Source: Escherichia coli O157:H7 (GTDB taxonomy: Bacteria; Pseudomonadota; Gammaproteobacteria; Enterobacterales; Enterobacteriaceae). Taken from it: DNA of 64,000 nt. Location of the stretch: assembly GCF_013167455.1 (NCBI RefSeq), contig NZ_CP038328.1. One strand, given 5' to 3'. Below, one piece after another: positions 34,336 through 34,468 of the stretch. The notes under the pieces are model-generated. The model made no database searches. It was not told where the DNA came from and saw only the letters and a program-made list of their open reading frames with translations. The translations under genes were made by a program, and so were the position numbers. Within the stretch, counting starts at the first letter, position 1. Every line of letters starts with the position of its first letter.

Positions 34336-34353
34336 TAGGTTGAGTGAATGTTA

Positions 34354-34447
34354 AACGCCCGGAGGCGCTTCCCGCGATCCGGGCTTTTTAATGGCAAGGT
34401 TTGTAACCTGTAGGCCTGATAAGACGCGCAAGCGTCGCATCAGGCAA
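34354..34447 (+). repeat. cysA-cysM intergenic structured region: terminator-like hairpin (34354-34390) followed by a REP element (34409-34447)
   Basis: GCCCGGA-N15-TCCGGGC followed by TTTTTA; then GTAGGCCTGATAAGACGCGCAAGCGTCGCATCAGGC. Confidence 0.7.
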
Positions 34448-34468
34448 CACCACGTATGGATAGAGATC

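Follow-up and report, generated by a model that had tools for sequence, protein, structure and literature searches.

The spacer between cysA and cysM in the cysPUWAM operon of Escherichia coli O157:H7 contains a GC-rich hairpin followed directly by a U-tract, and the same layout recurs, with unrelated stem sequences, in cysA-cysM spacers across the Enterobacterales. The hairpin is likely, at a probability of about 0.6, to act as a leaky intrinsic terminator which, aided by a REP element and by a weak ribosome-binding site with a GTG start codon, holds CysM below CysPUWA. If true, this would explain how one promoter could deliver unequal amounts of the transporter and of the thiosulfate-specific cysteine synthase, and it would be relevant to the engineering of cysteine and methionine overproduction with cysPUWAM cassettes. 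The hairpin is of a known kind, that of intrinsic terminators and intra-operon attenuators, and the REP has already been catalogued. What is new is the conservation of the hairpin-GTG module throughout the order, a modest addition.

The cysM gene is described as closing the cysPUWAM transcription unit, which is under CysB control. The features considered below are given in coordinates of the window, which is the whole 64,000-nt stretch of O157:H7 DNA that was analysed.

30524–31540, plus strand: cysP (open reading frame list)
31540–32373, plus strand: cysU (open reading frame list)
32373–33248, plus strand: cysW (open reading frame list)
33238–34335, plus strand: cysA, the ATP-binding subunit of the sulfate/thiosulfate ABC transporter (open reading frame list, RefSeq annotations, 99.7% identity to K-12 CysA)
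34336–34468: the cysA-cysM spacer, 133 nt
34357–34384, plus strand: terminator-type hairpin with a 7-bp stem, a small internal loop, an inner 3-bp GCG/CGC helix and a 5-nt loop (folding)
34385–34389, plus strand: U-tract TTTTT, followed by AAT, directly 3′ of the hairpin (sequence and folding)
34393–34456, plus strand: 64-nt segment holding the REP and missing from Citrobacter and Lelliottia spacers (alignment A1, spacer lengths)
34410–34445, consensus orientation on the minus strand: single Z2-type REP (exact consensus match, folding, REP175 orthologue)
34457–34471, plus strand: cysM translation start region, a weak Shine-Dalgarno-like TGGATAGAG and then GTG at 34469–34471 (conservation, PDB chains)
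34469–35380, plus strand: cysM, cysteine synthase B / O-acetylserine sulfhydrylase B (open reading frame list, RefSeq annotations, protein match)

O157:H7 chromosomes match the segment 34236–34568 at 100% identity, and 5425 of the 5426 complete E. coli genomes contain it, its flanks in the matched genomes being cysA and cysM according to the RefSeq annotations. K-12 has the same gene order and a cysA-cysM gap that is also 133 nt; the two spacers differ by one base, which lies within the REP. The K-12 RefSeq record carries no REP or terminator features. The cysA gene ends with two consecutive stops, TGA at 34333–34335 and an in-frame TAG at 34336–34338, and the motif at its end (CCTGATAG) is invariant across the eight species of alignment A1. 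Membership of cysM in the cysPUWAM operon is published (PMC3082872), and the first-pass annotation, which had assigned the 133-bp gap to this operon, proved correct to the base in every coordinate it gave.

Several differences from K-12 lie around the operon. The window lacks a 958-bp K-12 segment at 35385/35386, just past the cysM stop, which carries yfeS and the 3′ end of yfeK and, by its coordinates, REP174 as well. The yfeK homologue at 35418–35750 on the minus strand has an altered C-terminus. From the blastn blocks, the ucpA-cysP spacer is longer in K-12 by approximately 142 bp at 30408–30411.

The hairpin, the U-tract and the cysM start

The stem of the hairpin pairs GCCCGGA at 34357–34363 with TCCGGGC at 34378–34384, six of the seven pairs being G-C, and the TTTTT at 34385–34389 follows without a gap; the 7-bp stem and T-run noticed in the first reading of the sequence are thus exact. 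In the fold, AAAC at 34353–34356 is able to pair with the U-tract, whose T columns are invariant in alignment A1. The hairpin alone has a folding energy of -17.7 kcal/mol and a terminator score (d) of 14.6. When the flanking A/U pairs are included, the 43-nt segment 34350–34392 reaches -19.6 kcal/mol (z = -2.7), a value equalled by 1 of 200 shuffles. The score is of the d'Aubenton-Carafa type, and only the internal controls, shuffles and the antisense strand, are independent of the exact formula.

A scan of the 8 kb from ucpA to crr returned only two other sense-strand sites with d > 0, the ucpA terminator at 30379–30402 and the bidirectional pdxK/crr terminator at 36711–36730, and all three sense-strand sites coincide with gene ends. 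The same scan returned no terminator-like site with d > 0 directly past cysM. A simple terminator scan did not report the hairpin because loops were limited there to 8 nt. The element has the composition of an intrinsic terminator, a GC-rich stem-loop and then a U-rich tract on the transcribed strand, with no antisense equivalent found.

Within the species, 5425 of the 5426 complete genomes carry the hairpin segment as a single copy at 95% identity or more, and 5421 contain the full spacer (at least 80% covered). Beyond it, Citrobacter and Lelliottia have an orthologue of the E. coli hairpin, and alignment A1 shows a compensatory change from A-U to U-A at the seventh pair. In one strain, E. 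coli AST205, an IS200C element with an annotated tnpA (locus L083, 1855–2565) lies exactly between TTTTT and AATGG, equivalent to 34389/34390 of the window, so that approximately 710 bp now separate the hairpin from the REP and cysM.

The GTG at 34469 is the annotated start of cysM. The annotated K-12 CysM has 303 aa, as do the four best-matching PDB chains, and they align over residues 1–303. Among the 59 loci with cysA directly upstream, 56 have GTG as the homologous codon and two have TTG, with one unresolved, which upholds the earlier suggestion of a GTG start. In the translation start region, a TGGAYAG-like motif is found in outgroups. A longer cysM reading frame from ATG at 34391 was considered and rejected: it would translate the REP, the GTG is conserved, the PDB chains are 303 aa long, and other species have spacers whose length is not divisible by three.

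A REP element of restricted distribution

The sequence at 34410–34445 matches the Z2-type REP consensus GCCTGATGCGACGCTNNNNCGTCTTATCAGGCCTAC with no mismatches on the minus strand (0.00 expected by chance). Its GTAG head is at 34410–34413, and its fold has an energy of -23.1 kcal/mol (z = -6.4). An Rfam search at permissive thresholds gave only one match, sub-threshold and due to the REP, to half of naRNA4, an RNA derived from REP325. The element is dispersed, with approximately 37,900 megablast places in 5425 E. coli genomes and a median of 6 per genome; the window itself holds a second exact-consensus Z2-type REP at 59276–59311.

The same element has been catalogued in K-12 as REP175, at 2539608–2539643 between cysA and cysM and labelled 'tandem' (supplement of bioRxiv 10.64898/2026.03.23.713779). 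These coordinates correspond to 34409–34444 of the window, and the canonical REP palindrome that had been reported in the gap is both an exact consensus match and a known element. The O157:H7 copy shares with K-12 REP175 the Z2 consensus, the GTAG head, the imperfect palindrome, the extragenic and multi-copy character and the position between cysA and cysM, the K-12 copy being different by 1 nt. It does not form a BIME, as only one REP lies in 34336–34468 and the hairpin upstream of it is single-copy in E. coli.

The REP is carried by a 64-nt insertion, relative to Citrobacter and Lelliottia, located between the T-run and the ribosome-binding region of cysM; the spacers of those two genera are 66–68 nt long, compared to the 133 nt observed here. 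The insertion was found only in Escherichia (E. coli and E. albertii) and in Pseudocitrobacter faecalis, where, unlike the single REP considered here, a two-REP BIME occupies the same place. As a lineage-specific insertion, the REP cannot be the conserved functional core of the spacer. While REPs are often credited with effects on expression of the kind proposed, in this spacer the REP is, judging from the alignment, a late insertion beside an older hairpin. A 14-nt target duplication flanking the insert (AATGGCAAGGTTTG and TATGGATAGAGATC) was also considered; the left copy matches outgroup 14-mers at 7–9 of 14 positions, and since 7 of 14 is also reached at unrelated offsets, the duplication was not regarded as significant.

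In Enterobacter and its relatives, the spacer holds a pair of REP-like units of their own, and the distal unit is the hairpin that precedes the T-run. REPs were therefore acquired here on more than one occasion. In five Enterobacter-like loci (L012, L014, L016, L018 and L049, at approximately 2400–2500), the pair is inverted, GCCCGGTGGCGC..GCTTACCGGGCCTAC, with the T-run after the distal unit. In Enterobacter sp. ENT03 (L019, 2458–2480), only the distal unit is left, adjoining cysM, with a divergent yfeK upstream, as if a rearrangement had taken place through the REP-like pair. It was also considered whether the Enterobacter-type motif is a dispersed repeat; among the fetched loci it occurs almost only in the cysA-cysM spacer, with one extra copy in the ENT03 locus.

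A table in the supplement of the bioRxiv study lists peaks labelled 'NusG minus' and 'NusG plus' that fall at 34439–34645 of the window on the minus strand (K-12 2539407–2539613, plus strand), antisense to the 5′ end of cysM. The peaks overlap REP175 by 2–5 nt, which may suggest that antisense transcripts stop at the REP.

Spacers across the Enterobacterales

One genome per species was scanned, giving 80 cysM loci, 59 of them with cysA directly upstream. The shortest and longest spacers of these 59 loci measure 50 and 1378 nt, and there is a floor near 66–72 nt. For the analysis of hairpins, 59 spacers were used, namely that of the window and those of 58 loci with spacers of up to 600 nt. A sense-strand hairpin and T-run with d > 0 was present in 43 of the 59, and d exceeded 10 in 40. 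The antisense strand gave one such site, and dinucleotide-preserving shuffles averaged 0.85 and reached 3 at most.

Approximately ten unrelated stem sequences are represented among these hairpins, including CAGGCGGCC. The stem is GCCCGG/CCGGGC in Escherichia, Citrobacter and Enterobacter, GCGGCC/GGCCGC in Cedecea, Siccibacter and Shimwellia, GGGCGGG/CCCGCCC in Pantoea, GGCAACC/GGTTGCC in Serratia and TGCTCATC/GATGAGCA in Photorhabdus. Since the stems are unrelated between genera, it is the architecture that is conserved and not the sequence. If the proposed function is true, the spacer would provide a clean, order-wide example of a terminator selected for its shape and not for its sequence.

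The hairpin also accompanies cysM where the upstream gene is not cysA. In seven of nine such Enterobacterales loci, a hairpin and T-run with d > 0 lies 19–72 nt before a GTG-initiated cysM. In Kluyvera genomosp. 1 (L013) and strain RIT691 (L021), an alpha-L-rhamnosidase gene ends where cysA normally does, and in the same TGATAG context. In Dickeya, the gene preceding cysM matches 23835–24734 of the window and is probably yfeX, judged by gene order. Outside the Enterobacterales, none of 12 cysM loci had a hairpin and T-run with d > 0 before cysM.

The distance from the end of the stem to the GTG is 19–21 nt in the Citrobacter/Enterobacter group, 23–29 nt in Cedecea, Siccibacter and Shimwellia, and mostly 25–41 nt in Pantoea, Erwinia and Serratia. 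With the T-run only 19–30 nt before the GTG in many genera, and 19–20 nt before it in the Citrobacter/Enterobacter group, there is no room for a promoter and leader downstream of the hairpin, and cysM would have to be reached by read-through. As polymerase would then have to pass the hairpin to reach cysM, the hairpin, if it terminates at all, must be leaky. A scan for consensus promoters gave no promoter-like site in the E. coli spacer, close to it or at the 3′ end of cysA.

Proposed mechanism and its alternatives

From the structure, orientation and conservation of the hairpin, we infer that it terminates transcription in vivo. In the proposed mechanism, the hairpin at 34357–34384 and its five U residues would form a leaky terminator, or attenuator, at which most transcripts from the cysP promoter would end while a fraction passes into cysM. 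The efficiency of termination could be low, since a short U-tract (five U residues and then AAU) follows a stem that is interrupted by an internal loop. The read-through RNA would carry REP175, and the folded REP may block 3′-to-5′ exonucleases after cleavage downstream and so protect cysPUWA. REP175 may also add some factor-dependent attenuation as a late, lineage-specific add-on that is perhaps nearly neutral. Translation of cysM would then begin from the weak Shine-Dalgarno sequence TGGATAGAG and a GTG codon. All three layers, the hairpin, the REP and the weak start, would reduce CysM relative to the transporter. Together, the hairpin and the REP probably lower cysM expression, an ordinary form of operon fine-tuning.

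The proposal may be considered in terms of systems that are already known. The malE-malF operon is reportedly an intra-operon REP stabiliser system, the work being attributed to Newbury et al. in 1987. Both malE-malF and yjdM-REP325-yjdN likewise place a REP between two co-directional genes of one unit, with the upstream gene expected to be favoured; here, in contrast, the conserved part is a canonical hairpin and U-tract that lies ahead of the REP. In addition, REP325 is an array of several hairpins, whereas the REP in the cysA-cysM spacer is a single unit with a predicted effect. The leaky intra-operon terminators, as a general class, also have a GC-rich stem and U-tract between operon genes with no detectable downstream promoter. 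Those members have been seen by end-mapping, whereas termination at the cysA-cysM spacer is predicted, and its U-tract has only five residues.

The general REP literature is in keeping with a contribution from REP175. REP325 has been described as a partially Rho-dependent attenuator and stabiliser of upstream RNA, the log ratio of upstream to downstream expression has a median of 0.96 in 146 tandem gene pairs that contain a REP, compared to -0.09 for random pairs, and REP effects are context-dependent (bioRxiv 10.64898/2026.03.23.713779). Stem-loops, including REPs, shield 3′ ends from PNPase and RNase II (PMC6061677). The first-pass annotation had proposed that both structures cause partial termination and stabilise the upstream mRNA, leaving cysM at a level unlike that of cysPUWA. 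This is plausible, and the part of it that concerns the hairpin is strengthened by the sense-only hairpin and T-run in 43 of 59 spacers. The share given to the REP fits the literature, but the REP is lineage-specific and is not the conserved core.

The same annotation had named 3′-end mapping as a check. The Term-seq data of Adams et al. 2021 (PMC7815308), a curated and thresholded set from LB at two densities and M63 glucose, include no 3′ end for the spacer or for either of the genes that flank it, cysA and cysM, nor any at K-12 25395xx–25396xx. This is a weak negative, because the list is thresholded, growth in LB represses the operon, and none of the three conditions was sulfur-limited. 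The supplements of the TERMITe paper contain no entry for cysA or cysM. A search of the available literature on the cysPUWAM terminator, the cysA-cysM gap and an internal cysM promoter found no description of the hairpin, although an earlier mention is possible. With respect to expression, an lsrR deletion mutant of avian pathogenic E. coli had cysUWA elevated approximately ninefold with cysM and cysP unchanged (PMC13393413). These data are suggestive of an uncoupling of cysM from cysUWA; since cysP was also unchanged, they are not a clean test of it.

The hairpin may alternatively be viewed as mainly an RNA-stability element, serving as an exonuclease barrier at a processed cysPUWA 3′ end or as 5′ structure of a processed cysM mRNA, with no meaningful termination. 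The missing 3′ end in the list of Adams et al. 2021 is in accord with this view, as are the non-terminating stable stem-loops known to define 3′ ends (PMC6061677) and the large hairpins that are kept even with poor T-runs, for example in loci L032, L048 and L064. A stability hairpin needs no U-tract, however, whereas in 43 of 59 spacers the stem runs straight into a T-run, which is found on the sense strand only and has been kept despite turnover of the stem; a purely stabilising role is unlikely, if the weightiest of the alternatives. It is less probable still that the hairpin is an efficient terminator closing a cysPUWA operon, with cysM expressed from a promoter of its own. Although cysM is found behind unrelated genes in several Enterobacterales and did not track cysUWA in one transcriptome (PMC13393413), no promoter-like site was identified in the spacer or the cysA 3′ end, and cysM is counted in the cysPUWAM operon (PMC3082872). 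Moreover, the 19–30 nt between T-run and GTG in many species would place such a promoter upstream of the hairpin, where it would have to read through it.

That neither element has a selected function is just as improbable as a separate cysM promoter. The hairpin would then be a decayed REP-like palindrome, REP175 a selfish passenger and any effect on expression incidental. The orthologous hairpin of Citrobacter and Enterobacter does share its sequence with the REP-like unit of that clade (GCCCGGTGGCGC..GCTTACCGGGC), the Enterobacter hairpin makes up one half of an inverted pair of REPs whose heads are GTAG/CTAC, the REP and BIME content of the spacer varies by lineage, and IS200C has entered the same spot in one strain. 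Distant genera, however, have hairpins unrelated to REPs with the same hairpin and T-run layout in the same place, and the hairpin segment keeps 95% identity or more in 5425 of 5426 E. coli genomes. The hairpin could also be a conditional attenuator, or could terminate a regulatory RNA drawn from the cysA 3′ UTR, so that read-through or the released 3′ fragment would itself be regulated; this would suit its linkage to cysM, which outlasts changes of the upstream gene. U-tailed terminator hairpins are, in addition, typical Hfq-binding 3′ ends, which is a further point in favour of regulation of this type. It is nonetheless the most remote of these alternatives, as there is no conserved upstream sequence able to form an antiterminator, no Rfam family match, and no 3′ end in the list of Adams et al. 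2021.

The leaky terminator thus remains the preferred reading. A broader proposal is that the hairpin, the U-tract, the short weak ribosome-binding site and the GTG are a cis-module kept with cysM and not with cysA, which could be a conditional attenuator. Read-through of such an attenuator could respond, for example, to sulfur source, to ribosome spacing at the cysA stop, or to Hfq or Nus factors. This proposal is improbable; if true, cysM would be regulated apart from the CysB control of the transporter genes.

Two Rho-termination regions have been reported on either side of the spacer (Adams et al. 2021). One is a strong region just inside the start of cysP, at approximately 30531 in the window (K-12 2543521, minus strand, score 17, p = 5.6e-46). 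The other, at K-12 2538040, is antisense to yfeS and downstream of cysM.
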